From: Vulcanimicrobiota bacterium
GTDB taxonomy: Bacteria > Vulcanimicrobiota > Vulcanimicrobiia > Eremiobacterales > Eremiobacteraceae
DNA length: 64,000 bases
NCBI GenBank assembly: GCA_963805945.1
Contig: CAWDVP010000004.1
Location: 120,830-184,829, forward strand
Direction of reading: 5' to 3'
The notes under the pieces were generated by a model. It searched no databases. It had not been told where the DNA came from and saw only the letters and a program-made list of their open reading frames with translations. Both the position numbers and the translations under genes were made by a program. Shown here one piece after another: positions 1,986 to 24,519 of this stretch. Position 1 is the first letter of the stretch; every line of letters begins with the position of its first letter.

Positions 1986-2136
1986 AGTTCCAGATTAGCA
2001 CCCTCGCGCGGTTCCGTGCCTGAGAACGCGATGAGAACGATTTCTCATCGGGATTTCACCCTTGTGGGGGTAAAAGAGCGCGCGCTCGCTTCGTTCTTAT
2101 GGATAGAGAAACGGGCGGGCACAGAGGAGACGGGAC

Positions 2137-2279
2137 ATGGTGCAAGAGACAGCAGCGACGACCGGCAGCGGATCGGCGCTCACCCGCGCCGAGATGCACG
2201 CTTACTACATCGCGTTCGTGACCATGACGCGGGTGGGCTTCGACCCGCGCGCAGCTCGCTGACCAAGTCGGCTTCTTAG
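2137..2279 (+). CDS. Small hypothetical protein (about 41-47 aa)
   Basis: AGGAGA RBS then ATG; reads MVQETAATTGSGSALTRAEMHAYYIAFVTMTRVGFDPRAAR; the end is uncertain because of local indels. Confidence 0.4.
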
Positions 2280-2614
2280 GCCGTCAGCAGCTCGTCGCCT
2301 TCGCTGGGCGCAAGCTCGATGAGTTCGACTTCTCCGTCGGGAAAGCGAGCGATGATCTGGGAGCTCTCCGCCCACCGCCTCGATATAGCGACGCAGCGTG
2401 CTCACATAGACATCCGTGCAATGCTCGAGTTACGACACCTCGGGCTCGCGTCATGTCGAGTATGCCCGCAAGCGTCTCTTGTGTGAGCTGGCGCGCGCGC
2501 CGCACTTCGCCGAGCAGGGCTGCGCGCTTCTTCCAATCTTGCTCTGCGAGCTCTACAACGCCCGGTTTCGAGTGGGTTGCACGAATCTCGCTCCATCTTC
2601 TTGGTACTGGGCAT
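2277..2614 (-). CDS. XRE/HTH antitoxin (HigA-like), frameshifted
   Basis: Fragments RRARQLTQETLAGILDM and VSTLRRYIEAVGGEL; start overlaps the toxin stop. Confidence 0.8.
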
Positions 2615-2982
2615 CAGATCAAACCCTCGGCTTTCGAGCTCTTCAAGGTGGTAGGCATGAGAGTTTCGGTCAGCGATCGGCACCATGCGCTCGTAGAATC
2701 GTCCGTCACCGGTCTTGTCGCCGCCGATAAGCAGAATCGCTACGCGTCGCGGGTCGAAGGCGAAGAACGTGCGCGAAGTAGGACGGCCCCCGAGCCTGAG
2801 TCCGCAACTCCTTCATGTTGGCGAATCGCGAATCTCGAACTGCGTCGGCGTATGGGCGAGCTAGACCCGGACCGCTTTCTTCGAGGAGTTTGATCGAGAC
2901 GTAAAGCGCGCGCTGCTCGGCGATGCCCGAAGGATCCGTACCACCCCTTGAACTCGTTCGTGCTCTCGACCACCCATATCAC
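2613..2982 (-). CDS. RelE/ParE-family (HigB-like) toxin, frameshifted
   Basis: N-terminus VIWVVESTNEFKGWY; later fragments FFAFDPRRVAILLIGGDKTGD and FYERMVPIAD; toxin-before-antitoxin order. Confidence 0.8.
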
Positions 2983-2986
2983 CGCT

Positions 2987-3015
2987 ATTATACCTTCTAT
3001 ATCATAGTCTGTCAA
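2987..3015 (-). promoter_or_regulatory. Consensus sigma70 promoter of the TA operon
   Basis: TTGACA-17 bp-TATAAT on the minus strand, 4 nt before the GTG start. Confidence 0.85.
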
Positions 3016-3042
3016 AGGTATGAGGCCATCGCCACAACGCAA

Positions 3043-3070
3043 AGAGGCCGACCTGAAGGTCGGCCTCTAC
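3043..3070 (-). repeat. REP family A hairpin; its GTAG supplies the SLT gene stop codon
   Basis: GTAGAGGCCGACCTTCAGGTCGGCCTCT on the minus strand. Confidence 0.8.
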
Positions 3071-3798
3071 ATGGAGCCGCGGGCGTTGAATAAGCCCAGA
3101 GCGTGCGCCCGGTAGTCCGCTAAGATCGAGCTCACGTAGTTGCGCGTCTCCGCATACGGCGGCACGCCGTGGTACCTGTCGACCGCGCCTGAACCCGCGT
3201 TGTAGGCGGCGAGCGCGAGGTCGAGCCGGCCGCCATACTGATCGATAAGACCGCGCAGCATCTTCGCCCCCGCGTCCACGTTTTGCACAGGATCGTACGG
3301 GTCGTTGACGCCGAGCGATTTCGCGGTGTCCGGCATGAGCTGCATGAGGCCCATCGCGCCGGCCGACGACTGCGCCTTCGGATTGAACCCAGATTCTTGC
3401 TGGATGACCGCGGTGAGCAGCGCCGGATCGAGCTCATGCCGCTGTGCGCTGCGCTGGATGAGGCCGTCATACGGATTTGCCGCCTGCGCCTGCGATTGGG
3501 CGCGGCGGGTGGGAGTGGACGGCTGCGCGGCCGACGCGGCGGATTCGGCGCTGCGCGCGAGCGACTGCAGCGCTTTCATGAACGTGCGCTCGATGGACTT
3601 GAGCTGGCTGGAGAGCTGTGTGATGAGCTTGGACAGGCTCATCTCGTTCGGATCGGTATGATTATCGCCGCTGGCGCTGGGCGCCGGCTCGGACGGCGGA
3701 AGACCTGTATCGCCGCCTGCGTCGATCGGACGCGTCGCGACGGGCAACGTCCAGCGTAAACTCGAGGGGTCGGGCGTATCGATCGGTGCGATGCTCAT
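3067..3798 (-). CDS. Lytic transglycosylase (SLT domain) with N-terminal extension
   Basis: AVIQQESGFNPKAQSSAGAMGLMQLMP, LALAAYNAG and ETRNYV motifs; start MSIAPID. Confidence 0.92.
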   Translation of the reverse strand: MSIAPIDTPDPSSLRWTLPVATRPIDAGGDTGLPPSEPAPSASGDNHTDPNEMSLSKLITQLSSQLKSIERTFMKALQSLARSAESAASAAQPSTPTRRAQSQAQAANPYDGLIQRSAQRHELDPALLTAVIQQESGFNPKAQSSAGAMGLMQLMPDTAKSLGVNDPYDPVQNVDAGAKMLRGLIDQYGGRLDLALAAYNAGSGAVDRYHGVPPYAETRNYVSSILADYRAHALGLFNARGSM

Positions 3799-3878
3799 CG
3801 CCAATCCTTTCCGCAAGAGAACAGCGCTCGTACTATCACGCGATCGCCTGCATCGGTCCAGGGGCGCGGCGCAATCGC

Positions 3879-5149
3879 TCAGGCGATCGCCCCAAGCGCC
3901 TCGATCGGATCGCCGGCCCTGCCGTCGCCGTCGAAGACGAATGCCTCGAGCTCCTCGCGCGCGGCGACACACGCGTCGAGCCAGCCATCCGAGCCGGCGC
4001 GGTACGCGCCGATAGCGAAGAGATCTTCTGCACCGGCGAGCGTGGCGAGCGCGTGGCGGACGATCGCCGCGTCGTGCCGATGCTCGGGTGTGACGATCTC
4101 CGGCATCGCGCGGCTCAAGCTGCGCAGCACGTCGATCGCCGGGTAGCGCGCGGCTTCGGCGAAGCGCCGCGACAGCGCGATGTGCCCGTCGAGCAGCGCG
4201 CGCACCGCGTCGGTGACGGGCTCGAATTCGTCGTCGCCGTCGACCAAGACCGTGTACACCGCGGTGATCGAGCCCTGCGGACGCGCGCCGGCCCGCTCGA
4301 CGAGCCGCGCGAGTGCGAGCGGCATCGAGGGCGGATGGCCGCGCTGCGCTGGTGGCTCGCCGGCCGCGAGCGCCATCTCGCGCCACGCCGCGGCGACGCG
4401 GGTGAGCGAATCGATGACGAGCAGCACGCGTCGGCCGCTGCGGCACAGCCATTCCGCTTGTGCGGTCGCGGTTCGGGCCGCGGTGAAGCGCTCGATCGCG
4501 CTCGTTTCGGAGGTCGCGCAATATAAGGAAGTGCTCGGCCAGCACGGCAGCACTTGAAGCCGGTCGCGAGCCTCTGCGGCCTCGCGGGCGCGCTCACCGA
4601 CGAGCGCCACGACACGCGCATCGACCGCCGCGTTTCCGACGATGCGCCGCAGCAGCGTCGTTTTGCCGACGCCTGCGCCGGCGGTGAGCGAGACGCGCTG
4701 TCCGTAACCGAGCGTCGCGAACGCGTCGATCGCGGCGACACCGGTGCGCAAGACCCGCGCGATGGGAGCGCGGGCGCGCAGCGGCAAGCGCGGCGGATCC
4801 AGCGGCGCGACGATGCGCGCGCGGCTGCCGCGCGCCCGGCCCCACGCGTCGGCGACTGCGCCGAGCAGCGCCGTACCGACGTATGCGCCGAGCCTGCCGA
4901 GTTCGCTAAGCGCCGGCGCGCCGACCGCGACGCCGGCGACGCCGCCCAACGGCGTGCAGCGCGCGCCGTCGCCATCCACCGCGCGCACTTCGGCGAGCAC
5001 GCGACCGCCGTCGCGCGTGGCGATCGTCAGGACATCGCCCGGCGTCAGCGCGGGCGCGCGGACCACCACGATGTCGGCGCCCACGCTCGTGACACAACCA
5101 CGGCTATGAATCCGTCGGCGTGCTCGAAGGTGAGCGGCAAATCACGCAT
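3879..5149 (-). CDS. fliI: Flagellar/T3SS export ATPase FliI (one frameshift near 5' end)
   Basis: Walker A AGAGVGKT, LVGERARE, DSLTR, LVERAG and YPAIDVLRSLSR; position after fliH. Confidence 0.88.
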
Positions 5150-5716
5150 ACGCGGCGGCGCGCGCGAGCAGCAGCGCGCGCTCTTCGATCGTCGCACCGA
5201 GCGTGCCGGCGTCGGTGGTGACGCTGACGGCACCTCGCGCGAGCGAGGCATCCGCGACGACATCCGCCTCGCGGCTCGGCCGGAACGCGATCGCATCCTC
5301 GGGATGAAGATGGATCGCGGCGCGGCCCACGCGGCCGCACGCCCGTAGCGCTTCATCGACGTAACGCGTCAGCTCGTCCGCGTCGGCCGCGACGGCTTTG
5401 CGCAGCGCGCGGGCGCAGGCGATGGCGGCGAAGCGGATCGCCTCTTCCCGCAGCGCGACGTGAGCCTCTTCTTCATCGCGTACGCGCCTGCGGTCGTGGC
5501 GTACGGCGGTGAGCCTCATCGCCTCCGCCATCACGTTCGACATCAGCCTCGGGCTCGCGCGACTCGACGATCTCCGTGACCGGAGCGTTCGCCGCGCGCG
5601 CTGTCGGCGATGACGGTGATTTGTTCGAGAACCGGCATGATCTCCGACGGGACATCGGCCTGAGGCGCCCCGTGCCGCCGCGGGCGCAGCGGCACGAACT
5701 CACGCTCGTCGTGCAT
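5142..5716 (-). CDS. fliH: FliH/SctL-like protein (frameshifted; intact C-terminal part 5142-5543)
   Basis: IHLHPED and DASLARGAVSVTTDAGTLGATIEER match the FliH C-terminus; lies between fliF and fliI. Confidence 0.7.
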
Positions 5717-7106
5717 CGTGCAGACATGCCTCGACGGAAGCGCGGCGCAGCGGGCCGTAGGATTCCAGCACGCGCTCGCGCAGCCCGCGCGGCAGCGACG
5801 AGAGCACGTACGCCGCCGTGCGCGGCGATTCGCGATCGAGCGTGTCGCGCAAGCGGCTCACGACGGGATCGGCGGGCTTGGCTGTGCGATGCGGCCAAAA
5901 CGTCAGGCACAGCGCGACCATGAGCACCGCCGCGGCGGGCAGCACCGCGCGGGCGAACGGCGCGGGTGGCGGCACTGCAGGCGCAGCCTTCGCGGCGAAC
6001 GGCACCGCCTCGACCACCACCTCGTCGCCTGCTTCGAGGTCCGCGCCGGCGGCCGCGCGCACCAACGCGGCGATCGGCTGCGAACGCTCGGCATCCGTGC
6101 GCGCCGCGTCGAGAAAGACCGCCACAGAGATCTTGGCGAGCGCGTCGGCGGCGGTCGAGCGGTGCTCGATGATGGTGTCGTACGCATAGTGCCGCGCCGT
6201 GCGCTCCTTGGAAAGCCGCCGGCCGTTCTCAAGCCCGTGCTCGCTGCCGGTGTCGGCGTCGAGCAGTCCATGCGGCACCACACGTGTGCTCTGCACTGTG
6301 CTCTCGGCGCCCTGGCTGCGCACGCTCACGCGCACTACCGCGGCGCCGGCGCCGAGCACCGCGTCGAGCGCTGTCTGCACGTTCGCCTGGATGCGCGTCT
6401 CGCGGCTCGCGGCGCGATCGGGTGCGGCAGCGCCGAGCAACGCGCCCGAGCCGTCCACGATCGCCACGCGATCCGGATTGAGTCCCGGATATCCCGCGGC
6501 GACGAAACGGCGGATGCCGGCGACGGTCGACGCCGCCAGCTGCACGCCGGGCTGCAGGATGAGCTGCACGCTCGCGCTCGGCGGCGAACGCTCCGCTTCG
6601 TCCGCGAACGCGTCTCCGCTCGCCGGCGCGATGACCACCGACGCATCCGCGACGCCGTCCATGCGCCGCAGCCCGCTCACCAAGTCTCCCTCGATGCCGG
6701 AGCGGCGGCGATCGTCGACGACCTCAGGCGGCGCGAGCGGGTTGTCTTGGGTCTGGAGCACGTCCGCCGTGGTCGGCACGTAATGATGAGGCAGATCGGC
6801 GAGCGCCAAGCGCAGCAGCAGATCGCGCCGGCGATGGGCGTTGACGAAGATCTGCGTGCCTTGGGCGTCGGCGGAGAACGGCTCGTTCCACAGCGTGAGC
6901 GCCTGCGCGACTTCTGCGACTTGCCGCGGGTGCAGCGGCGCGTCGAACAGCGCGACCGGAGCGGCGCCGCGCACGACCAGCGCGATGACAGTTGCCACGA
7001 CCACACAGGCGGCGGCAGCGCCAAGCGCCGCGGTCCGGCGTCGCCGTATCCAGAAGACGCAGTCCTCGACGACGCGGGGCAGTTTCGCGGGCAGCAGGGC
7101 CAGCAC
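5700..7106 (-). CDS. fliF: FliF M-ring protein with a C-terminal FliG-M-like ARM segment
   Basis: N-terminal TM, IEGDLVSGLRRMDGVADASVVI, PPSASVQL, PGLNPDRVAIVDGSG, GDEVVVEAVPF, second TM, then RESPRTAAYVLSSLP. Confidence 0.82.
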   Translation of the reverse strand: MLALLPAKLPRVVEDCVFWIRRRRTAALGAAAACVVVATVIALVVRGAAPVALFDAPLHPRQVAEVAQALTLWNEPFSADAQGTQIFVNAHRRRDLLLRLALADLPHHYVPTTADVLQTQDNPLAPPEVVDDRRRSGIEGDLVSGLRRMDGVADASVVIAPASGDAFADEAERSPPSASVQLILQPGVQLAASTVAGIRRFVAAGYPGLNPDRVAIVDGSGALLGAAAPDRAASRETRIQANVQTALDAVLGAGAAVVRVSVRSQGAESTVQSTRVVPHGLLDADTGSEHGLENGRRLSKERTARHYAYDTIIEHRSTAADALAKISVAVFLDAARTDAERSQPIAALVRAAAGADLEAGDEVVVEAVPFAAKAAPAVPPPAPFARAVLPAAAVLMVALCLTFWPHRTAKPADPVVSRLRDTLDRESPRTAAYVLSSLPRGLRERVLESYGPLRRASVEACLHDARRA

Positions 7107-14721: not shown

Positions 14722-15192
14722 TCAGCCCGCCTTGGTGAGGCGCAGCACTTCCGTGAGCACGTCGTTCGCGGCCCAGAAGAGATCGGACAGCTCGCTCTTC
14801 TTCTGCGTGAGCGCGGTCGCGGCGAGCGGCGCCGACGCGTAGACGCCGTCGGATTTCAATATGAAGAAACCGACGTTGCCCGGCGCCGGCGGCGCATACT
14901 GCGTGGTCTTGGTGAAGCGATCGAGATGCTGTCCGGCGAGCTTGAGCAGCTTCGCGCCGGCGTTGCGGACCGCCGCGTGCGCGCCGGCGCCGATCGTGCC
15001 GCCGCCGGTGCCGAGGTAGAGGCTCGTCGTGCCGTCCGCGAGGGTGACGATCGTCGCCAAGCCCGCCGGCAGCGCGAAGTCGACCACGGCGCCCCACACG
15101 CCGTTGGGCAGCGGCGTGATGCCGACGCGCTCGAACGTGGTGGTGAGCGCCATCGTGCGCATCGTCTCCATGACGTTGGGAGAATCCGGCAT
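14722..15192 (-). CDS. Hypothetical protein
   Basis: Coherent ORF MPDSPNVM... between lysS and truA; ADGTTSLYLGTGGGTIGAG. Confidence 0.7.
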   Translation of the reverse strand: MPDSPNVMETMRTMALTTTFERVGITPLPNGVWGAVVDFALPAGLATIVTLADGTTSLYLGTGGGTIGAGAHAAVRNAGAKLLKLAGQHLDRFTKTTQYAPPAPGNVGFFILKSDGVYASAPLAATALTQKKSELSDLFWAANDVLTEVLRLTKAG

Positions 15193-15197
15193 GAGGG

Positions 15198-16694
15198 CTA
15201 CTCCGGTTTTTGCAGCGGGAACAGCAGCACGTCGCGGATCGATTCTTCGCCGGTGAGCAGCATGATGAGGCGATCGACGCCGATGCCCAGGCCGCCGGTG
15301 GGCGGCATGCCGTACTCGAGCGCTTGGACGTAATCCCAATCGGGCTCGGGCGCTTCGGCGTCGCCCTTGGCGCGCTCGGCCGCCTGCGCCTCGAAGCGTT
15401 TGCGCTGGTCGTCCGGGTCGTTGAGCTCCGAGAACGCGTTGACCATCTCCATGTGCGCGATGAACAGCTCGAAGCGCTCGACGAGCTGTGGGTCGTTCGC
15501 TTTGCGCTTCGCCAGCGGCGAGAGCACCACGGGAAAATCGGTGATGAAGGTGGGGCTGATCAGCTGCGGCTCGACGACCTGCTCGAAGATCTTGTCGATG
15601 ACGTGGCCGTGGCTGTCGCCTTTCTTGACGTCGAGTTTGAGCTTCGCCGCGACGTCGCGCGCGCGGCGCTCGTCGAGCGCGTCCTCGCGCGAAAGATTTC
15701 CCCATTTCGCCAGCGCGTCGAGATAGGCGATGCGCCCGAACGGCCGCTCCAGCGCGATCGGCTCGCCCGCGAAGATGTGTTCACCGCGCACGCCTGCGAC
15801 CGCGGCGAGGTGCAAGATGAGATCCTCGGACAGCTCCATCATGCTCTCGTAATCGCCGTACGCCTCGTACAGCTCGAGCATGGTGAACTCCGGGTTGTGG
15901 CGCCGGTCGATGCCCTCGTTGCGGAAGATGCGGCCCAGCTCGTACACCTTCTCGATGCCGCCGACGATGCAGCGCTTGAGGTTCAGTTCGGTCGCGATGC
16001 GCAATTGCAGCGGGATGTCGAGCGCGTTCGAGCGCGTCATGAACGGCCGCGCGTTGGCGCCGCCGGCGATCGAGACGAGCGTCGGCGTCTCCACCTCGAC
16101 GTAACCGCGGTCGTCGAGATAGCGGCGCGTCTCGGCGATCAGCCGGCTGCGCAGCAGCATCGTCTCGAGCACCGGCCGGTTTACGATGAGGTCGACGTAG
16201 CGGCGGCGATAGCGCGCCTCGTGATCGGTGAGTCCGTGCCACTTCTCGGGCAGCGGGCGTAGCGACTTGGCGAGCACGCTCAGTCGCTTGACGGCGATCG
16301 TCAGCTCGCCGGTCTTGGTGACGAACGGCTCGCCGTCGACGCCGACGAGGTCGCCGCGATCGAGCATGTCGGCGAAGCGGAACTCATCGCCGAGCGTATC
16401 GGCGCGCAGGTATATCTGGATGCGGCCGGACTGGTCCGAGAGATCCGAGAACATCGCCTTCTTGCCCATGTCGCGCACCGTGCCGAGCCGCCCGGCGACG
16501 CTGACAGACACGTCGGCATGCTCGCCGGCTTTGAGCTCGCCATAGGTATCGTGGAGCGCGCGCGCGCTGTGCGTACGCTCGAACTTGGTGATCGCGAACG
16601 GGTCGCGGCCGGATGAACGCAGCGCGTCGAGCTTGGCCCGACGCGCCTTGATGAGCTCTGACTCGGTCGTGCCGAGCTCGTGGTCTTCGCTCAC
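15198..16694 (-). CDS. lysS: Lysine--tRNA ligase (class II)
   Basis: RYRRRYVDL, FRNEGIDRRHNPEFTMLE, YGMPPTGGLGIGVDRL. Confidence 0.98.
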   Translation of the reverse strand: MSEDHELGTTESELIKARRAKLDALRSSGRDPFAITKFERTHSARALHDTYGELKAGEHADVSVSVAGRLGTVRDMGKKAMFSDLSDQSGRIQIYLRADTLGDEFRFADMLDRGDLVGVDGEPFVTKTGELTIAVKRLSVLAKSLRPLPEKWHGLTDHEARYRRRYVDLIVNRPVLETMLLRSRLIAETRRYLDDRGYVEVETPTLVSIAGGANARPFMTRSNALDIPLQLRIATELNLKRCIVGGIEKVYELGRIFRNEGIDRRHNPEFTMLELYEAYGDYESMMELSEDLILHLAAVAGVRGEHIFAGEPIALERPFGRIAYLDALAKWGNLSREDALDERRARDVAAKLKLDVKKGDSHGHVIDKIFEQVVEPQLISPTFITDFPVVLSPLAKRKANDPQLVERFELFIAHMEMVNAFSELNDPDDQRKRFEAQAAERAKGDAEAPEPDWDYVQALEYGMPPTGGLGIGVDRLIMLLTGEESIRDVLLFPLQKPE

Positions 16695-17197
16695 CGAGCC
16701 TTCGCTCTACCGCTCTTGCGATTCGCTCTGATGGAGATGACGCGCAGCTGCACGTCGCCGCTGGGCGTCGTCGCGGTGACCGTCTGGCCGGGCTTCGCGC
16801 CCATGAGCGCGGTGCCGATCGGCGAATCGTTCGAGATCTTGGCGTCGAGCGGATCGCTCTCGGCGCTGCCGACGATCGTGTACTCGGCCTCGCTGTTCGC
16901 GGTGATGTTGCGCACCTTGACGGTGCTCGCGAGATGGACTTCATCCGCGCCGCCCTCACCCTCGACGATGATCTTCGCGTTGCGGATCATCGCTTCGAGC
17001 TTCATGATGCGGCCTTCGATGAACGCCTGCTCCTGCTTGGCGTCCTCGTACTCCGCGTTTTCCGAGATATCGCCGAATTCTTTGGCCTGGCGGATGCGGT
17101 CGTTCACCTCTTTGCGGTGGACGGTCTTGAGCTCCTCGAGCTCGGCTTCGAGCTTTTTCAGCCCATCAGCGGTGAGGACGGTCTCTTTTTCTTGCAC
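16691..17197 (-). CDS. greA: Transcription elongation factor GreA
   Basis: GDISENAEYEDAK, ISNDSPIGTAL. Confidence 0.96.
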   Translation of the reverse strand: MQEKETVLTADGLKKLEAELEELKTVHRKEVNDRIRQAKEFGDISENAEYEDAKQEQAFIEGRIMKLEAMIRNAKIIVEGEGGADEVHLASTVKVRNITANSEAEYTIVGSAESDPLDAKISNDSPIGTALMGAKPGQTVTATTPSGDVQLRVISIRANRKSGRAKAR

Positions 17198-17207
17198 TTG
17201 GTCCCTT

Positions 17208-18131
17208 TCAGGTTGTCGTTGCGGGGAGGCGGAAATCTTCGATCCGCGGTGCGAACTTCAGCTCTTTCATGACGCGCATGTAATCGTCGTGGGTCACGTC
17301 CGCCCAGCGCTTGCCGAGCAGCGCGAGCAGCGCCGCCTCAAGCACATTGGTGCCGAACGAGCGGCCGCCCAGGTTCGGCGTGCTCGTCACCAGACGCGCC
17401 ACGCCGCGCGAGCGAAGCTCTTCGACGTTCGTCTGCGTCACCGTGTTGGTGAGGATGGTCTTGCCGCGCAGATCGTCTGGCATGTGCTGGCGGATGAAGT
17501 GGAAATCGCCGGCGACCGTCTCGGCGGCCGCGTAGTACTGCGAGTACTTCGGCGACGGCGGCTTCTCTTGTTTCTTGCCGGTCGGATAGAAGAACTGGAA
17601 CGGCAGCTTGCAGGCGTCGGGCAGATACTTCTCGGCGAGCGCCTCGAACTCGGCGAGCGAGGTGACCGGCTTGTCGACGTCGAGCGCGAAGATGAAATCG
17701 CCGAAGGTGAGGCGTGCGCCCGCTTCGGAGAGCGCCTGCGCCATGCCGAAGCGATCGAGCGCGCTCACCATGAGCACTGGCATGTCGCGGAAATCCATGA
17801 TGCCGTTGGATTGCAGATAGCGCACGGTCTCGCGCTCGAGGCTGTTCTTGAGCCCGCTGCCGTCCACCACCGGCGTCACCTTCACCGCTTCGAGCATGCG
17901 CAAGCCGTCGCGCAGCGCGTAGCGTTTGGTGCCGGCATACAGGTAGACATCGATGCCGCCCAAACCGATCGCGTCGACGGTGCCGTCCAACTCGTGCAGC
18001 TTCGCGATGGCGCGGTCGAGCGATCCATCGAAGCCGATGCGGCTGATGTCGAAACGCTCGCCCAACCACTCCACCTCGACGCGGTGGTCGCGGGTCGACG
18101 AGCCGAGACTGACCGAGACGACCTTCTTCAT
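17208..18131 (-). CDS. Uncharacterised protein (family often auto-labelled 'quinate 5-dehydrogenase')
   Basis: MKKVVSVSLGSSTRD, DAIGLGGID, VDGSGLKNSLE, GRSFGTNVLEA; overlaps the upstream reductase stop. Confidence 0.75.
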   Translation of the reverse strand: MKKVVSVSLGSSTRDHRVEVEWLGERFDISRIGFDGSLDRAIAKLHELDGTVDAIGLGGIDVYLYAGTKRYALRDGLRMLEAVKVTPVVDGSGLKNSLERETVRYLQSNGIMDFRDMPVLMVSALDRFGMAQALSEAGARLTFGDFIFALDVDKPVTSLAEFEALAEKYLPDACKLPFQFFYPTGKKQEKPPSPKYSQYYAAAETVAGDFHFIRQHMPDDLRGKTILTNTVTQTNVEELRSRGVARLVTSTPNLGGRSFGTNVLEAALLALLGKRWADVTHDDYMRVMKELKFAPRIEDFRLPATTT

Positions 18132-19336
18132 GTCGCTTTCGCCGGCCGCGTCGTCGCTTTTGCCGTCCGCTTCGCGGGCTTGAGCGCCGGCGTGACTTCG
18201 GGCGCGCCGTTGTGCGCGATGGCGCCGGGCTGCGCGGTCTGCTGTGCGGCCTGTGCGGCGCGCGCCGCGCGCGCGAGCTCCCGCGTGCGCGCGATCTGCT
18301 CGTCGCTCACCGGTTTGTCGAACGCGCGCATGCTCGCGAGCTTGAAGCCGTGCTTGTCGGCGAGCCGCTCCATCTCGAGCACTTTGTCGAGATGGATGCC
18401 GCGGCCGAGCGAATAGTTCTCGAAACGTCCTTCGAGCGTGAGGATCATCGTCTCCGACATGCACGCGAGCGCGGTGCGCGGCGGCAGGCCGAAGTCGAAG
18501 TGGAAATCGGGCTCGCCCGGCACGAGGATGTTGCCGCCTTCGCTCACCAGCACGTCCGGCCGCTCCGACGCGACGCGTCGCGAGACGTCGTGCGGCAGCG
18601 AGACCTCGGAGATGACCGCGCCAGGGCGCAGGTCCTCAGGCTCGACGATCGTCGAGACGGCGGAGGTCGCGGTGAGGATGAGGTCGGCGCTGCGCACCGC
18701 CTCGCGGATATCGGTGGTCCAGTCGAGCGCCGCCGAGACGTGCGGTTGCATCGCTTGCGTGAGATTCTTCAAGCGCGTCGCGTTACGCGCGGCAAGCGTC
18801 AGGCGCGCGACCTTAGTGCCGAGGATCTGGGAACACGCCGAGCCGATAGAGCCGGTCGCGCCGATGACCACGGCGTGCGCGGACGCGAGATCGACATCGA
18901 GCTCGCGCGCGCCGCGGAACGCGCTTTGGATGCCCGACGCGATGGTGTACGTGTTGCCGGTGGTGATGGCGATCCCCGGCACGGTCTCGGCAAGCGTCAC
19001 GCCGCCGTCGCCGACGACCGCGGAGAAGCCGCCCAGGCCGATGATGCCGCAGCCAAGCTCCTTCGCCAGCTTCGCGGCGCCGACGAGGCGGTCCATGATG
19101 AAGTCCCGCGGCAGATCAAGCCATTGTTCGGGCATGATCGGCACGCCGATGAACACGCCTTCGATCTCCTCGCCGGTGCTCGCGCTGCGCACGCCGGTGA
19201 TGTCGGAGACGCGATACGGCGGGATCCACTCGAGGATCTTCTTGATGATGGCGCGCCCCTTGCCGACGGCGCCGGGCTCGTAACGCTCGACGTCGTCGTA
19301 GGACAGCGGGTGCACCAGGAAGCCGAACTTGCGCAA
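18128..19336 (-). CDS. Acyl-ACP/thioester reductase-like NAD(P)-binding protein (COG5322-like)
   Basis: FGFLVHP, IIGLGGFSAVVGD, TTGNTYT, GATGSIGS, and LACMSETMILTLEG with the putative catalytic Cys. Confidence 0.8.
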   Translation of the reverse strand: MRKFGFLVHPLSYDDVERYEPGAVGKGRAIIKKILEWIPPYRVSDITGVRSASTGEEIEGVFIGVPIMPEQWLDLPRDFIMDRLVGAAKLAKELGCGIIGLGGFSAVVGDGGVTLAETVPGIAITTGNTYTIASGIQSAFRGARELDVDLASAHAVVIGATGSIGSACSQILGTKVARLTLAARNATRLKNLTQAMQPHVSAALDWTTDIREAVRSADLILTATSAVSTIVEPEDLRPGAVISEVSLPHDVSRRVASERPDVLVSEGGNILVPGEPDFHFDFGLPPRTALACMSETMILTLEGRFENYSLGRGIHLDKVLEMERLADKHGFKLASMRAFDKPVSDEQIARTRELARAARAAQAAQQTAQPGAIAHNGAPEVTPALKPAKRTAKATTRPAKAT

Positions 19337-19393
19337 TGGGCGGCCTGAACCTCAGATAGGCCCGGTCAAAGGGCGCCGGGACAGAGGCTCTTT

Positions 19394-19840
19394 CTACGCG
19401 CGGCGCGCCGCTTCCGCCCTGGTCTTCAGCGCGGTGAGCATCATGAGCGAGTTCTCTTCGACCTTCCTCTGAAGCGTCGGCCCGATGAGCTCGGCCAGCG
19501 TCGGCACCCCGAAATCGTAGTCGACGCCGAGGACCACGTGGGTCGTGCCGCCGCGCTCTTCAAAGGTCCACGAGCCCTCGAATTTGTCGAGATCGCCCTC
19601 GGTGAGGCGGTAGTCGATGCGGGTGCGGGCGTCGTCGAAGACGTCGATCTCCGTCCATTCGATCGGCGCTTCTTCCACCAACGTCTTCCAACGCGTCGTC
19701 GTGCTGTTGCCGTCGCGCGAGAGCACGGTGACGGCCTCGACGTCGGGCATGAAGTCCGGATAGTGCTCCATGTCCTTGGCGAGCTCGTAGATAGCCCGCG
19801 CCGGCGCAGCGATGTCGATCGTGGTCTCTACATAAGGCAT
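19394..19840 (-). CDS. SRPBCC / polyketide cyclase-dehydrase family protein
   Basis: DMEHYPDFMPDV and GDLDKFEGSWTF. Confidence 0.88.
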   Translation of the reverse strand: MPYVETTIDIAAPARAIYELAKDMEHYPDFMPDVEAVTVLSRDGNSTTTRWKTLVEEAPIEWTEIDVFDDARTRIDYRLTEGDLDKFEGSWTFEERGGTTHVVLGVDYDFGVPTLAELIGPTLQRKVEENSLMMLTALKTRAEAARRA

Positions 19841-19885
19841 TGAGCGGCCGTGCGGGCTCCCGTGCGCATGAAAAATCGCGCCGTC

Positions 19886-21148
19886 TTACGAGCGCGCGGT
19901 GCGTGCAAGGTCACCCAGTTTTTCCTTGGCGGTGACCAGTCCTTGTTCGAGCAGCCGCAGCGCTTCGTCGATCTCGTCTTTCGTCACGATGAGCGCGGGC
20001 TCGAGCCGGATGACCCGCTGTTGATTGAGGGTGTAGGCGACGGTGAGCCCGAGTTTGAGACATTCCGGGATGATCGCGCCGCCGTAGCCTTCGTTGGTCA
20101 GCTCGACGCCGACGACAAGGCCACGACCGCGCACTTCGCTGATGACGTCGGGGTGGCGCGCCATCAGTCTCTCGGCCTGCGCAAGCAAGTATTCCCCCAA
20201 CTCGCTCGAGCGCTCCACCAGGTGTTCTTCTTCTAAGACCTGCAGCGCGGCGAGGCCGGCGGTGCAAGCGAGCGGGTTGCCGCCGAAGGTCGAGGTGTGG
20301 ATGAGCGGCGCGTGTCCGAAGGCGCTCATCCACACATCGCGTCTGGAGACCGTGACGCCGATCGGAATGACGCCGCCGGAGAGGCCTTTGGCGGCGGTAA
20401 GGATGTCGGGCACGACCCCGTCGTGATCCACGCCCCACAGGTAGCCCGTGCGTCCGAGCCCGGTCTGTACTTCATCGGCGATGAACAGCGCGCCGTGCTT
20501 GTCGCACAGCTCGCGCACGCCGCGCAAGTAGCCGTCGGGCGGCACGATGACGCCGCCTTCGCATTGGATCGGCTCGACGATGAACGCGGCCGCCTCGGGC
20601 AGCGCCTCATCGAGCGCCTCGAGATCGCCGAAGACCACATGGGTGAACTCAGGGATCAGCGGCTTGAACGAATCTTTGAAGACGTCGCGGCCGGTGGCGG
20701 TGAGCGAGCCCATCGTCTTGCCGTGGTAGGCGTTGTGCGTGCTCACGAGCTTGGTGCGTTTGGTCGACAGGCGCGCCATCTTCAGCGCCGCCTCCACCGC
20801 TTCGGTGCCGCTGTTCGAGAAGAAGCTGATCGTGAGGTCGCCCGGCGCGATGCGCGCGACTGCTGTCGCGAGTTCGGCGGTCTTGGCGTTGAAGAACACG
20901 CGCGACGAGAGCGCCATGTGCTCGAGCTGGGCGCGCACCGCGGCAACGACCTTCGGGTGCATGTAGCCGAGTGTGAAGACGCCGTAGCCGCCGCAGAAAT
21001 CGAGATACGACTTGCCTTTTTCGTCGAAGACGCGGCAGCCGTGCGACTCGACCTCGACCGTCGCGCCGGCGAGCTTCATGAAGCGCGCCAGCGGCGGGTT
21101 GATGTGCTCTTTATACGCGTTGTAGACGCTATCGAAATCCATCGTCAC
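19886..21148 (-). CDS. Class III PLP aminotransferase (putrescine/acetylornithine-type)
   Basis: SNSGTEAVEAALK, YHGKT, IADEVQTGLGRTG, AKGLSGG, STFGGNP. Confidence 0.93.
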   Translation of the reverse strand: MTMDFDSVYNAYKEHINPPLARFMKLAGATVEVESHGCRVFDEKGKSYLDFCGGYGVFTLGYMHPKVVAAVRAQLEHMALSSRVFFNAKTAELATAVARIAPGDLTISFFSNSGTEAVEAALKMARLSTKRTKLVSTHNAYHGKTMGSLTATGRDVFKDSFKPLIPEFTHVVFGDLEALDEALPEAAAFIVEPIQCEGGVIVPPDGYLRGVRELCDKHGALFIADEVQTGLGRTGYLWGVDHDGVVPDILTAAKGLSGGVIPIGVTVSRRDVWMSAFGHAPLIHTSTFGGNPLACTAGLAALQVLEEEHLVERSSELGEYLLAQAERLMARHPDVISEVRGRGLVVGVELTNEGYGGAIIPECLKLGLTVAYTLNQQRVIRLEPALIVTKDEIDEALRLLEQGLVTAKEKLGDLARTARS

Positions 21149-21155
21149 GACCGCT

Positions 21156-22781
21156 TTAGTGCGACACGACGGTTATCATGCCGGTCATGCCCTGATGGTA
21201 ATCGCAGTGGTAGCTGATAGGACCCACCCGTGGGAACTTATAGGTGAAGGATTCGCCGGGCGGCAAGTCGCCGACGATCGAGCTGTCGCTCGACACCACG
21301 TCGTGCGCGTCCGTGTCCTTGTTCACCCACGTCACCGACCCGCCGACGTGGACGACGGTGTTGCTCGGAAACGAATCATCGGTGATATCGATCTCGACAT
21401 GCATCGGCGCCGGTGGGGGCGCGGCGGTCGGCGGCGGAGACGAGACCACCTGCGAATTGACGCACAGCGGCGAACTTGGATCCGACTGGACGCTGCCGTG
21501 ATAGGCCCTGACGATGAAACACTCGGGAACCTTGAACGGCCCGAGGTCGGCGCCTCGTATGCCGCCGTTGGACTGGTGGGCGACCTCCGGGCCGCCCGCT
21601 TGATACACGTTGTAGCCGTCGACGCTGGACACGCAACCGGATCCGCCGCACGGATTCCAATTCCAATACAACACGGTGTGCCCCGTGCTGATGTATCCAT
21701 CGCACTGTCCGCTCGACGATCCGAAGACGGCCTCACACGTGGCGATGTTCTGGATGGTGCGCACGTTCCACGGCGCCGCCACGTACGCGCTCTGCCCGAC
21801 GCAGTGCGTGCCGCTGTCATTCGATTCACGGCTCGTCGTGAACGCCGTGACCACGAAGCACTCGCCTTGGCTGAACGGCGAGATGCCTCGCAGCGTGATG
21901 CTGGGATTCGTCTGCGTGTCCACCAGCGTGCGCGTATAGCCTGCGTAGTGCACCTGATGCGCCATCGTGGTATGCAGTGTCGTGATCGGCTCGAGCTTGA
22001 GCATCGTCACCGAGTATATGTGAAAGCCTTGGATCTGCTGCACACAGTTCGCGCTCTTGCAGGCCGCCCAGTTCCACACGAGCAGCAGCAGCCCGGTTTG
22101 CCCGATCACGGTCGGGCATATGAAGGCACCGGCCAAGCCCACATGGGCGGTGCAGACGCTGGGATTTGTGGTATACGTGAGGCCGGTGGGCGCGGCGACG
22201 AAACTCGGCGGCCCGGGGCTCGCCGTCGGATGCCCAAAGGGGATGACTTTCGTCGGATGCAGCACGATCATGCTCGGGCTGGGATGCGGCGTCGCGCCGG
22301 CGTGCCCTTTGTTTGTGGAATGCGCGACGGACGCCGCTGATGCCGTCGTGCAACCGGCCGAGCGCACGGTCGTGATCTGGCCGGCGTCGTTGTTGAAATC
22401 GCTCTCTTTGATCCAGTGGCCCTGATTGATGATGACCGCGAGCGGCATCTTGGGCGCGGTCGCTTTGCCGGACGCGTGGCGCACCAGATCGACTTCGACG
22501 ACAGCCGAGCCGTTGGCCGCGATGGCGGGTAGCCCGGCGCTGCCGGTCCAGCTATGCGGCGTCGCGCTATCGTGGACGAACACCGCCGCGACGCCGCTGG
22601 CCGCCGGGCTGGACGCCGAACCGTGATTCGCGACGGTGATGCTGACCGCATACGTCTGTTCCGACCCGCTGCACGTCTCGGTCGCCGCTGTCGCCGCGAT
22701 CACGAGATCCGGCTTGCCGCTCGCGTGAGCATGCGCCGACCCGATGACGAGCAGAAGCACGAAAAGAGCTAGCGTCTTCAT
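21156..22781 (-). CDS. Secreted multidomain protein: CARDB-like domain, two Cys-rich FN3-like repeats, C-terminal cupredoxin
   Basis: Signal peptide; KPDLVI...ESDFNND; repeated WNW..C...C...G[FY].[IV]Y...ECF.V.A; HDV and YHCDYHQGM Cu ligands. Confidence 0.75.
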   Translation of the reverse strand: MKTLALFVLLLVIGSAHAHASGKPDLVIAATAATETCSGSEQTYAVSITVANHGSASSPAASGVAAVFVHDSATPHSWTGSAGLPAIAANGSAVVEVDLVRHASGKATAPKMPLAVIINQGHWIKESDFNNDAGQITTVRSAGCTTASAASVAHSTNKGHAGATPHPSPSMIVLHPTKVIPFGHPTASPGPPSFVAAPTGLTYTTNPSVCTAHVGLAGAFICPTVIGQTGLLLLVWNWAACKSANCVQQIQGFHIYSVTMLKLEPITTLHTTMAHQVHYAGYTRTLVDTQTNPSITLRGISPFSQGECFVVTAFTTSRESNDSGTHCVGQSAYVAAPWNVRTIQNIATCEAVFGSSSGQCDGYISTGHTVLYWNWNPCGGSGCVSSVDGYNVYQAGGPEVAHQSNGGIRGADLGPFKVPECFIVRAYHGSVQSDPSSPLCVNSQVVSSPPPTAAPPPAPMHVEIDITDDSFPSNTVVHVGGSVTWVNKDTDAHDVVSSDSSIVGDLPPGESFTYKFPRVGPISYHCDYHQGMTGMITVVSH

Positions 22782-22840
22782 GGCTGGGCCACTGCTTCTG
22801 CCTCGGAGGTGCGGCATCCCGCGATTCGAACGTGCTCGCC

Positions 22841-23448: not shown

Positions 23449-24519
23449 TTAGCCGAGTTTGGTGCCGCAGTTACCGCAGAACTTGGCGCCTTCGGGATTC
23501 TGCTGATGGCATTGCGGGCACTCGACCGTCGTGACCACCGCTTTGCCGCACTCCGGGCAGAACTTCGCGTCTGCCGGGATCTTCGCCTGACAGTGCGGGC
23601 AGGCGATCATCGCGACCGCCGCGCCGGCAGCGGCCGCGCCGCCACCGCCCGCAGCCGCGCCCGCGTTGCCCGCTTGCATCGCTTGGTTGAGCATGCCGGG
23701 GATCGCAAAACCGAGTCCGGCGCCCATGCCGATGCCCGCGGCCGCGCCCGCTGAGCCGCCGGGGTTCTGCGCGGCCTCTTCGAGCGAACGCGCAGCCTTG
23801 AACTGCATGTACTGATTCATGTTCCCGACGACGCCCATGCCGGTACGCTCGTCGATGACCTTCTGCACGTCGTCCGGCGGCGTGATCGCGTTGATGAGGA
23901 AATCGACCAGCTCGACGCCGTACTGCGCGAAGTCGTCCTTGACGCGCGCCTTGGCGGCCGCGTCGAGCGCGTCGTAGTTCTTGGCCAGGTCGAGCACGCT
24001 CTTCACCGTCTCGCCGAGCAGGTTGTTGAGCCGCGACACGATGATGTTGCGGAAGAAGTCCTGTAGCGACTCAGACGTGTAGACGTTTGCCGTGCCGACG
24101 ATCTTGTTGACGAACAGCTGCGCATCGGTGACGCGCACCGAGAAGATGCCGTACGCGCGCAGACGCACCATCGAGAACTCGGCATCGCGGAAGAGGATCG
24201 GCTCGGCCGTGCCCCAGCGCAGGTTCGTGAAGACGTTCATGCTCACGAAGTAGACCTGGCTCTGGAACGGCGAGGTGCCGCCGAACGGGATCGACAGGAA
24301 CTTGGTGAGGACGGGCAGGTTCTGCGTCGACAGCGTGTAGCGGCCCGGCGTGAAGGTGTCGAGCGCGCGGCCATCGCGGAAGAACACCGCGGCCTGGCTC
24401 TCCTGCACGATGAGCTGGCTGCCCCACTTGATGTCGGTGGAGCCGGTCTCGGGCCAGCGATGCACGATCTGCTGCCCTGTGTTGTCGAAGAACTCGATGA
24501 CCGAAAGGCCGAGTGCCAT
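23449..24519 (-). CDS. SPFH-domain protein (YdjI-like) with double zinc ribbon
   Basis: GSQLIVQESQAAVFFRDG, PFQSQVYFV; C-terminal CPHC/CPEC/CPQC/CGNC. Confidence 0.88.
   Translation of the reverse strand: MALGLSVIEFFDNTGQQIVHRWPETGSTDIKWGSQLIVQESQAAVFFRDGRALDTFTPGRYTLSTQNLPVLTKFLSIPFGGTSPFQSQVYFVSMNVFTNLRWGTAEPILFRDAEFSMVRLRAYGIFSVRVTDAQLFVNKIVGTANVYTSESLQDFFRNIIVSRLNNLLGETVKSVLDLAKNYDALDAAAKARVKDDFAQYGVELVDFLINAITPPDDVQKVIDERTGMGVVGNMNQYMQFKAARSLEEAAQNPGGSAGAAAGIGMGAGLGFAIPGMLNQAMQAGNAGAAAGGGGAAAAGAAVAMIACPHCQAKIPADAKFCPECGKAVVTTVECPQCHQQNPEGAKFCGNCGTKLG

Follow-up and report, generated by a model that had tools for sequence, protein, structure and literature searches.

A phylum-wide four-gene cluster of Eremiobacterota as a candidate alkylamine operon with an unfused reductase and transaminase

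What is made by four adjacent genes that encode a class III aminotransferase (AT), a small SRPBCC protein, a protein resembling acyl-acyl carrier protein (acyl-ACP) reductase (AAR), and a fourth protein, P4, known in public records as 'quinate 5-dehydrogenase' or hypothetical? The genes lie in a 64,000-nucleotide stretch of contig CAWDVP010000004.1 (assembly GCA_963805945.1; hereafter the window) from a Vulcanimicrobiota bacterium, which belongs to a little-known phylum of soil bacteria. The window has a G+C content of 65%; the source genome comprises 2.3 Mb, is 82% complete, and has relatives named Eremiobacterota or Vulcanimicrobiota. We propose, with about even confidence and from sequence comparison, that the four genes form a core operon with an unfused thioester reductase and omega-transaminase, whose likely product is a long-chain alkylamine for a membrane lipid.

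Protein families and conservation of the cluster

The reductase finds its best NCBIfam family in the N-terminal half of PigE (1.1e-55), with residues 33-369 aligned to profile positions 37-371. It also matches the cyanobacterial AAR family TIGR04058 (8.8e-29, 100.9 bits), below the equivalog cut-off of 449.7, and no match exceeds this cut-off in any of the 61 genomes, source genome included, that we sampled across the Eremiobacterota/Vulcanimicrobiota. Among structures in the PDB, the top match is PigE (4ppm, 1.9e-31), and the AAR structure 6jzq is matched at 3.8e-21. The motifs FLVHP, GLGG, TTGN, GATGSIG, and ACMSE are all present in the translation. GATGSIG (residues 159-165) constitutes the GxTGxIG dinucleotide-binding loop, and Cys292 of the ACxxE motif lies opposite chain residue 294 of 6jzq, C294 of AAR being the catalytic cysteine according to PMC9594044. 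Residues G159, A160, T161, G162, I164, G165, and C292 show no variation in 35 of 35 homologues, and the tail beyond approximately residue 350 is Ala/Lys-rich and unconserved. Judged by its cysteine and GxTGxIG loop, the protein belongs to the AAR/COG5322 superfamily, and reduction of its substrate to an aldehyde is predicted. Among plasmid sequences, every match of the reductase was to a fused PigE-like gene, from Ralstonia or other Proteobacteria. An unfused AAR-like paralogue with 43-45% identity occurs in four Chloroflexia loci (L011-L014, approximately 2000-7100), with P4 not nearby. It lies downstream of genes for an alpha/beta hydrolase and a 438-445-aa hexapeptide-repeat (LbH) protein; an opposite-strand MFS transporter gene intervenes in L011 and L012, and in L014 the LbH gene runs directly into the AAR-like gene.

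The AT belongs to PF00202 (E 6e-109, 364.8 bits against a gathering threshold of 30.5). Its best NCBIfam family is again PigE (1.4e-126), here with AT residues 7-355 on profile positions 378-732, level with the putrescine aminotransferase family NF008570 (2.5e-126; 421-422 bits, below the cut-off of 612). In the PDB, putrescine aminotransferases are the best matches and PigE comes next. A second YgjG-type aminotransferase of the source genome (G000:C2:110747-112099, corresponding to locus L120:130-1455, minus strand) is 41% identical to the AT and scores 686 bits against NF008570. As this gene passes the cut-off and the AT stays below it, the AT is a distinct paralogue rather than the putrescine aminotransferase of the cell. 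Aminotransferases of the YgjG/PigE branch act on terminal aldehydes and amines. The first-pass annotation, which was made from the sequence alone, had described the set as resembling a split TamH/PigE pathway; each enzyme does score best in NCBIfam against one half of PigE, and translations, Pfam, and NCBIfam bear out the open reading frames (ORFs), families, and motifs that it had listed, the four genes lying on the minus strand.

The SRPBCC protein matches PF03364 (1.4e-21, 77.5 bits, cut-off 23.4) and PF10604 (1.8e-17, 64.4 bits, cut-off 27.4). Its best solved relative is TTHA0849 of Thermus thermophilus (2d4r, E 2.5e-23), aligned over residues 1-145 of both proteins, and the next PDB match (9e-7) is 16 orders of magnitude weaker.

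The gene order AT-SRPBCC-reductase-P4-greA-lysS(-truA) is kept in nine named Eremiobacterota loci, and AT-SRPBCC-reductase-P4-greA-lysS recurs in 80 metagenome loci as far as their contigs extend. Co-occurrence of the four genes, on which the first-pass annotation had staked its proposal, is found across the phylum sample: the reductase is present in 61 of 61 genomes, P4 in 60 (the single genome without it has a shortened reductase match), the SRPBCC protein in 61 (60 times on the cluster contig), and an AT orthologue, down to about 50% identity, in 59, on the same contig and directly upstream. The two AT exceptions, G001 and G009, resemble contig breaks. An order kept in the nine named loci, the 80 metagenome loci, and the 61 genomes argues that the arrangement is not due to chance. 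Phylum-wide co-occurrence in a constant order makes a core rather than secondary-metabolite role likely, in agreement with the structural role that had been suggested for the product.

Within the window, 45 nucleotides (nt) separate the AT from the SRPBCC gene and 57 nt separate the latter from the reductase gene. The reductase and P4 genes overlap by 4 nt, with the ATG of P4 placed on the reductase TGA as ATGA. A gap of 10 nt follows P4, and greA, which is probably co-transcribed with it, in turn overlaps lysS by 4 nt. The co-orientation with greA, lysS, and truA noted at first pass is supported by Pfam, which confirms the identity of all three, and by the same order in related loci.

The fourth protein, P4

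In the ORF list, P4 appears as a protein of 418 aa (17208-18464). Its homologues begin at MKKVV, so the true gene is the 307-aa form given in Table 1. P4 has no match by sequence in the PDB, nor in Pfam or NCBIfam at E <= 0.01, and yet forms a large family with 930 representatives at 50% clustering (E <= 0.001). We rejected P4 as a quinate/shikimate 5-dehydrogenase: it lacks a match to PF01488 or to the shikimate dehydrogenase families, and such enzymes reach only Z 8-9 against its model. The first-pass annotation had placed the pathway behind 'shikimate/quinate dehydrogenase' labels; the public label of P4 has no such family match behind it.

An AlphaFold2 model of P4, built from an alignment of 80 diverse sequences, has a pLDDT of 96 and a pTM of 0.93. 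Compared with 48,161 chains, its top structural match is AAR (6jzq, Z 13.2, 246 aligned residues, root-mean-square deviation 4.8). The terminal amidation domain (TAD) of carmabin biosynthesis (9e4s and others) matches at Z 12.6-13.1, with 9e4s at 12.6, and the next fold, glutamate dehydrogenase, at Z 9.9. On the strength of this model, P4 is assigned an AAR/TAD-like fold. Kinship between P4 and the reductase is visible at the fold level only, the two families being aligned by hhalign with a probability of 0.2. This miss is not decisive, because the N-domains of TAD and AAR themselves share only 9% identity, according to bioRxiv 10.1101/2024.10.28.620694.

P4 contains the sequence GLGG, as had been noted at first pass; a relationship to the reductase through this motif could not be demonstrated at the sequence level. 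Neither a cysteine nor a glycine-rich motif appears where the 80 sequences are invariant or nearly so. At the corresponding places, judged from the order of motifs, P4 has the stretches VSAxDRFG and GRSFGTNVxEA. Its invariant polar residues include R15, R32, D50, D91, K96, E100, R128, D146, D210, K225, R258, and N263. P4 proteins of Eremiobacterota share 52-56% identity with named Bacillota or Actinomycetota proteins, and the reductase diverges faster than P4, to 53-60% identity in loci where P4 is at about 70%. Such conservation would suit an enzyme or a specific ligand binder better than a paralogue in decay. P4 had been called uncharacterised, which stands; it is more than a paralogue with a related motif, in that its sequences define a separate and more conserved family. 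Searches with P4 gave no matches in plasmid sequences, and a metagenome scan with the P4 alignment returned close Eremiobacterota relatives only, in no new contexts.

Furthermore, P4 and the reductase occur as fusions of about 700 aa. For three of these (P0141, P0206, and P0237), a domain scan or BLASTP confirmed the fusion, and approximately 35 of 47 longer P4 matches agree with them in length class and labels. Roseiflexaceae, Anaerolineae, and other Chloroflexota are given as the source of some, and the reductase cysteine is retained in 32 of 36 fusions. A different fusion is found in P0202 (762 aa), in which an alpha-oxoamine synthase resembling BioF and serine palmitoyltransferase (91-435) is joined to P4 (466-735), a second acyl-thioester-using partner of P4. 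P4 may be an obligatory subunit of the reductase. Alternatively, it may be the enzyme of a neighbouring step, a role that the invariant charged residues and the head-group-type neighbours of P4 in Chloroflexota (see below) would fit.

Candidate product and alternative explanations

We postulate that Cys292 of the reductase would accept an acyl group from acyl-ACP or acyl-CoA, which the enzyme would reduce with NAD(P)H to the aldehyde, as its family membership and conserved residues suggest. The reductase would act together with P4, to judge from the gene overlap, which implies translational coupling, and from the fusions elsewhere. The AT would then turn the aldehyde into a primary amine, and the START-like SRPBCC protein would hold or pass on the hydrophobic aldehyde or amine. 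The most likely substrate is a long-chain fatty acyl group, in which case the operon would supply a core membrane lipid with a fatty alkylamine; this lipid may be of the N-glyceroyl alkylamine phosphoglycolipid type found in Deinococcus, Thermus, and some Bacillota. A long-chain alkylamine for a membrane lipid appears to be the most economical product.

Phosphoglycolipids that contain an alkylamine are major lipids of the Deinococcus and Thermus membranes. The N-glyceroyl alkylamine type is on record for Thermus, Meiothermus, Oceanithermus, and Deinococcus (PMC9636437 and other papers). According to PMC9636437, the enzymes for the alkylamine (third hydrophobic) chain were still unidentified in 2022, and a table note in PMC13274423 lists N-glyceroyl alkylamine lipids in Moorella thermoacetica. 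The literature searched, which left out Bale et al. 2025, gave no gene assignment for these lipids. P4 homologues are named from the thermophilic Bacillota Limnochorda, Thermovenabulum, Gelria, Syntrophothermus, and Syntrophaceticus; Bale et al. 2025, going by its title, reportedly deals with N-glyceroyl alkylamine lipids in Bacillota. In 14 named control genomes, the AAR family occurs only in Synechococcus elongatus (above the cut-off), T. thermophilus, and Deinococcus radiodurans. T. thermophilus also matches the YgjG/PigE-type aminotransferase family NF008570 at E <= 1e-100. The nearest Atlas cluster of P4 is commonest in Deinococcota, and the two that follow have their highest frequency in Bacillota and Vulcanimicrobiota. 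PMC9425974 (Table 3) lists a csCOG 'annotated as quinate 5-dehydrogenase' that occurs in Thermus and in each of the Deinococcus genomes (33 of 33), and considers it uncharacterised, of low variability, conserved, and probably important. The polar lipids of Vulcanimicrobium alpinus, the sole cultured member of the Eremiobacterota, are all unidentified (PMC9758169).

From these observations, we tentatively extend the proposal: the operon and its homologues could be the missing alkylamine-chain genes of the N-glyceroyl alkylamine phosphoglycolipids, core also in Eremiobacterota and Armatimonadota, with P4 a new enzyme of the pathway. We regard this extension as possible, if somewhat doubtful. If true, P4 would be an indispensable reductase subunit or the catalyst of a later step, for instance glyceroyl amide formation, and such lipids would be core beyond Deinococcus-Thermus and some Bacillota. 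T. thermophilus and D. radiodurans, two genetically tractable species, have homologues of the four concrete candidate genes, so the question of the alkylamine genes is directly testable. In addition, the operon gives a working context to the P4 family, which has no Pfam model, and a natural unfused acid-to-amine enzyme set may be of use in biocatalysis.

Several observations weigh against the alkylamine proposal and its extension. Chain length cannot be read from the reductase family, because PigE and KecF use short keto-acyl or polyketide thioesters, and Pfam finds no ACP, acyl-activating enzyme, glycosyltransferase, or phosphatidyltransferase within the cluster. The Deinococcus/Thermus link drawn at first pass is supported by the AAR-like genes, the P4 label, and the SRPBCC protein; for the AT, D. 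radiodurans gave no NF008570 match at E <= 1e-100. The match of the SRPBCC protein to TTHA0849 is weakened by the over-representation of Thermus in the PDB, and the Deinococcus csCOG is equated with the P4 family through its label and the Atlas match, not through an alignment; the csCOG id and COG5322 are both absent from the supplements of PMC9425974. The AT-like gene of Armatimonadota has no linkage to P4 and is of ambiguous orthology, since it scores 407 bits to the cluster AT against 357 to the putrescine aminotransferase of the source genome. The P4-reductase pair of Chloroflexota, fused or split, is patchy (16 of 81 genomes), and five fusion-bearing genomes have only ArgD-like aminotransferases with 39-42% identity. 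As the pair occurs here without an AT orthologue, the reductase-P4 module is not specific to amine synthesis. Finally, stand-alone P4 genes of Chloroflexota adjoin MobA/cytidylyltransferase-like and PAP2 genes, an indication that P4 has a separate activity beyond this model.

The two phyla offer further contexts for P4 and for the aminotransferase branch. Of 71 Armatimonadota genomes, 70 contain P4 and 66 contain AT-like genes, which leaves too little variance for a test of co-occurrence to be informative. One Armatimonadota genome and one 'Hebobacteria' genome have P4 immediately upstream of the reductase gene, in an arrangement that lacks AT and SRPBCC genes. An AT-like gene there, of the YgjG/PigE-like type (L098:2532-5164, genome G061, and L099:2337-5011, genome G064), is translationally coupled to the end of a gene for a TolC-like outer-membrane efflux protein, downstream of leuC/leuD-like genes. 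In the Chloroflexota loci L112 (6388-8641, genome G141) and L117 (6207-7973, genome G084), P4 overlaps the start of the MobA-like/cytidylyltransferase-like gene, which is followed in L112 by a PAP2 phosphatase gene, an arrangement that resembles a small lipid head-group operon. Other stand-alone P4 operons of Chloroflexota have MBL, MFS, and alpha/beta-hydrolase genes, and one P4-reductase fusion gene sits between PEMT-like and hydrolase genes.

The strongest alternative is that the reductase and P4 make a fatty aldehyde, alcohol, or diol for lipids that contain no amine, with the AT a mere syntenic neighbour that serves polyamine or amino-acid metabolism. The Chloroflexota pairs without an orthologous AT and the unlinked AT-like gene of Armatimonadota would fit such a division, as would an AT that fits putrescine aminotransferase about as well as PigE, and a cluster placed within a panC-coaBC-coaX-dus ... 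greA-lysS-truA housekeeping block. We nevertheless consider it unlikely, since the AT is directly upstream in 59 of the 61 phylum genomes down to about 50% identity, the source genome already has a true putrescine aminotransferase elsewhere, and the reductase-transaminase pairing has been fused three times independently in known enzymes.

The nearest characterised relatives, PigE, TamH, and KecF, all belong to secondary metabolism, so that the operon could instead make a specialised small- or medium-chain amine or cyclic imine, for instance an alkaloid or a signal, and not a lipid building block. This is quite improbable for a cluster that is universal, single-copy, and syntenic throughout the phylum, with a slow-evolving P4 that is also found in 70 of 71 Armatimonadota genomes; in addition, a Pfam scan of the window proteins places no polyketide synthase, nonribosomal peptide synthetase, or tailoring genes nearby.

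It is likewise a long shot that the reductase and P4 form an amide in the manner of TAD, an amine attacking the acyl or glyceroyl thioester on Cys292 to give an N-glyceroyl amide directly. TAD is proposed to make terminal amides via a cysteine thioester (bioRxiv 10.1101/2024.10.28.620694), P4 matches carmabin TAD as well as it does AAR, and its many invariant Arg, Lys, and Asp residues could allow binding of a substrate with a phosphate or carboxylate group. In sequence, however, the reductase has PigE and AAR as by far its closest relatives, the chemistry of TAD is unproven in its own right, and a separate source of the fatty aldehyde would be required.

A replacement of glutamyl-tRNA reductase (HemA) and HemL by the reductase-AT pair in 5-aminolevulinate synthesis was rejected as having a negligible probability: although the source genome has hemL but no hemA above the cut-off, the reductase gene is its best match to TIGR01035, and the chemistry is analogous, this match spans the NAD-binding domain only, hemA co-occurs with the cluster in 37 of the 61 phylum genomes (the cluster being present in 61), and all 17 other genomes of the same class have hemA, the source genome being only 82% complete. 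The 24 of 61 phylum genomes without hemA include all ten of family f6 and all six of family f13, most of them more than 90% complete; in these lineages, the C5 pathway may be absent or replaced by a different route. A lipid that replaces lipopolysaccharide was also rejected for the source organism, in which LpxC is present (294 bits).

Gene neighbourhood and comparison with known systems

The minus strand is transcribed in the order CARDB/cupredoxin gene, AT, SRPBCC, reductase, P4, greA, lysS, small ORF, and truA (Table 1). A scan for promoters and terminators gave nothing exceeding shuffled controls. The CARDB/cupredoxin gene, with its CARDB part N-terminal and its cupredoxin part C-terminal, stops 7 nt ahead of the AT start. 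It has no tblastn match at the corresponding place in loci L002-L016 and therefore represents a lineage-specific insertion upstream of the operon. In other lineages, the upstream genes are dus, coaX, coaBC, and panC, which places the cluster inside a housekeeping block and marks the cupredoxin gene of the window as a local insertion. Homologues of the SPFH/Band-7 gene lie upstream of the cluster in four related loci (L002, L005, L009, and L025), and the small ORF between lysS and truA is weakly kept at the same place in L003 and L004 (34-40% identity).

Table 1. Positions of the cluster genes and their neighbours in the window
Feature	Position	Strand	Length	Family or basis
AT, class III (omega-type) aminotransferase, PigE-TA/YgjG-like branch	19886-21148	minus	420 aa	PF00202
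SRPBCC/START-like small hydrophobic-ligand-binding protein (predicted)	19394-19840	minus	148 aa	PF03364, PF10604
Acyl-ACP-reductase-like thioester reductase (COG5322-type, predicted)	18128-19336	minus	402 aa	NCBIfam and PDB matches
P4, predicted AAR/TAD-like fold, public label 'quinate 5-dehydrogenase'	17208-18131	minus	307 aa	AlphaFold2 model
greA	16691-17197	minus		PF03449 + PF01272
lysS	15198-16694	minus		PF00152 + PF01336
Small ORF between lysS and truA	14722-15174	minus		without Pfam family
Secreted CARDB/cupredoxin protein	21156-22817	minus	553 aa	PF13473 (1e-7), PF07705 (8e-6)
SPFH/Band-7 protein with C-terminal double zinc ribbon	23449-24519	minus		PF13421 (7e-65)

Each protein of the cluster can be set beside a known system. 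The full-length homologue of the SRPBCC protein, TTHA0849 of T. thermophilus HB8 (2d4r), is deposited as a hypothetical protein. Carmabin TAD (9e4s) has the AAR fold and, together with AAR, provides the best structural matches of P4. According to bioRxiv 10.1101/2024.10.28.620694, TAD has an invariant cysteine and binds NAD; P4, in contrast, has neither the cysteine nor a glycine-rich loop, and is a free-standing protein, unlike carmabin TAD. The reductase resembles AAR (TIGR04058; 6jzq) in its fold, in TTGN, GxTGxIG, and ACxxE with the catalytic cysteine, and in a full-length alignment. AAR, however, is partnered by an aldehyde-deformylating oxygenase, whereas the reductase of the window is accompanied by P4, the AT, and a START-like protein.

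Other routes from acyl groups to amines are known. The TabE/TabA route of Streptomyces uses an unrelated reductase of the aldehyde dehydrogenase type (bioRxiv 10.1101/2025.08.11.669332). TamH, a TA-TR fusion, acts with TamA to convert C12 acid to C12 amine by means of an AAR-like domain and a class III transaminase (PMC9594044). Conversion of a carrier-bound C12 acyl group to the C12 amine is the same reaction as proposed here, but TamH depends on the ANL-ACP protein TamA and is part of a secondary-metabolite cluster, while the cluster in the window has no TamA-like gene. The same logic is predicted for KecF in PMC6498172.

PigE of the Serratia prodigiosin MAP pathway (4ppm; NF053554) shares with the cluster the use of an AAR-like reductase and a class III transaminase on one substrate, and PMC8341465 describes PigE as reducing a thioester. 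Against the NF053554 cut-off of 850 bits, the AT (424) and the reductase (189) remain far below. PigE is a single fusion of 837 aa, whereas the window encodes two proteins with the SRPBCC gene between them, plus P4, and its genes are phylum-wide core genes without a pig cluster. As a whole, the new feature of this cluster, as predicted from its protein families, is a separate-protein (unfused) variant of the known reductase-transaminase pair to which an SRPBCC protein and P4 have been added.

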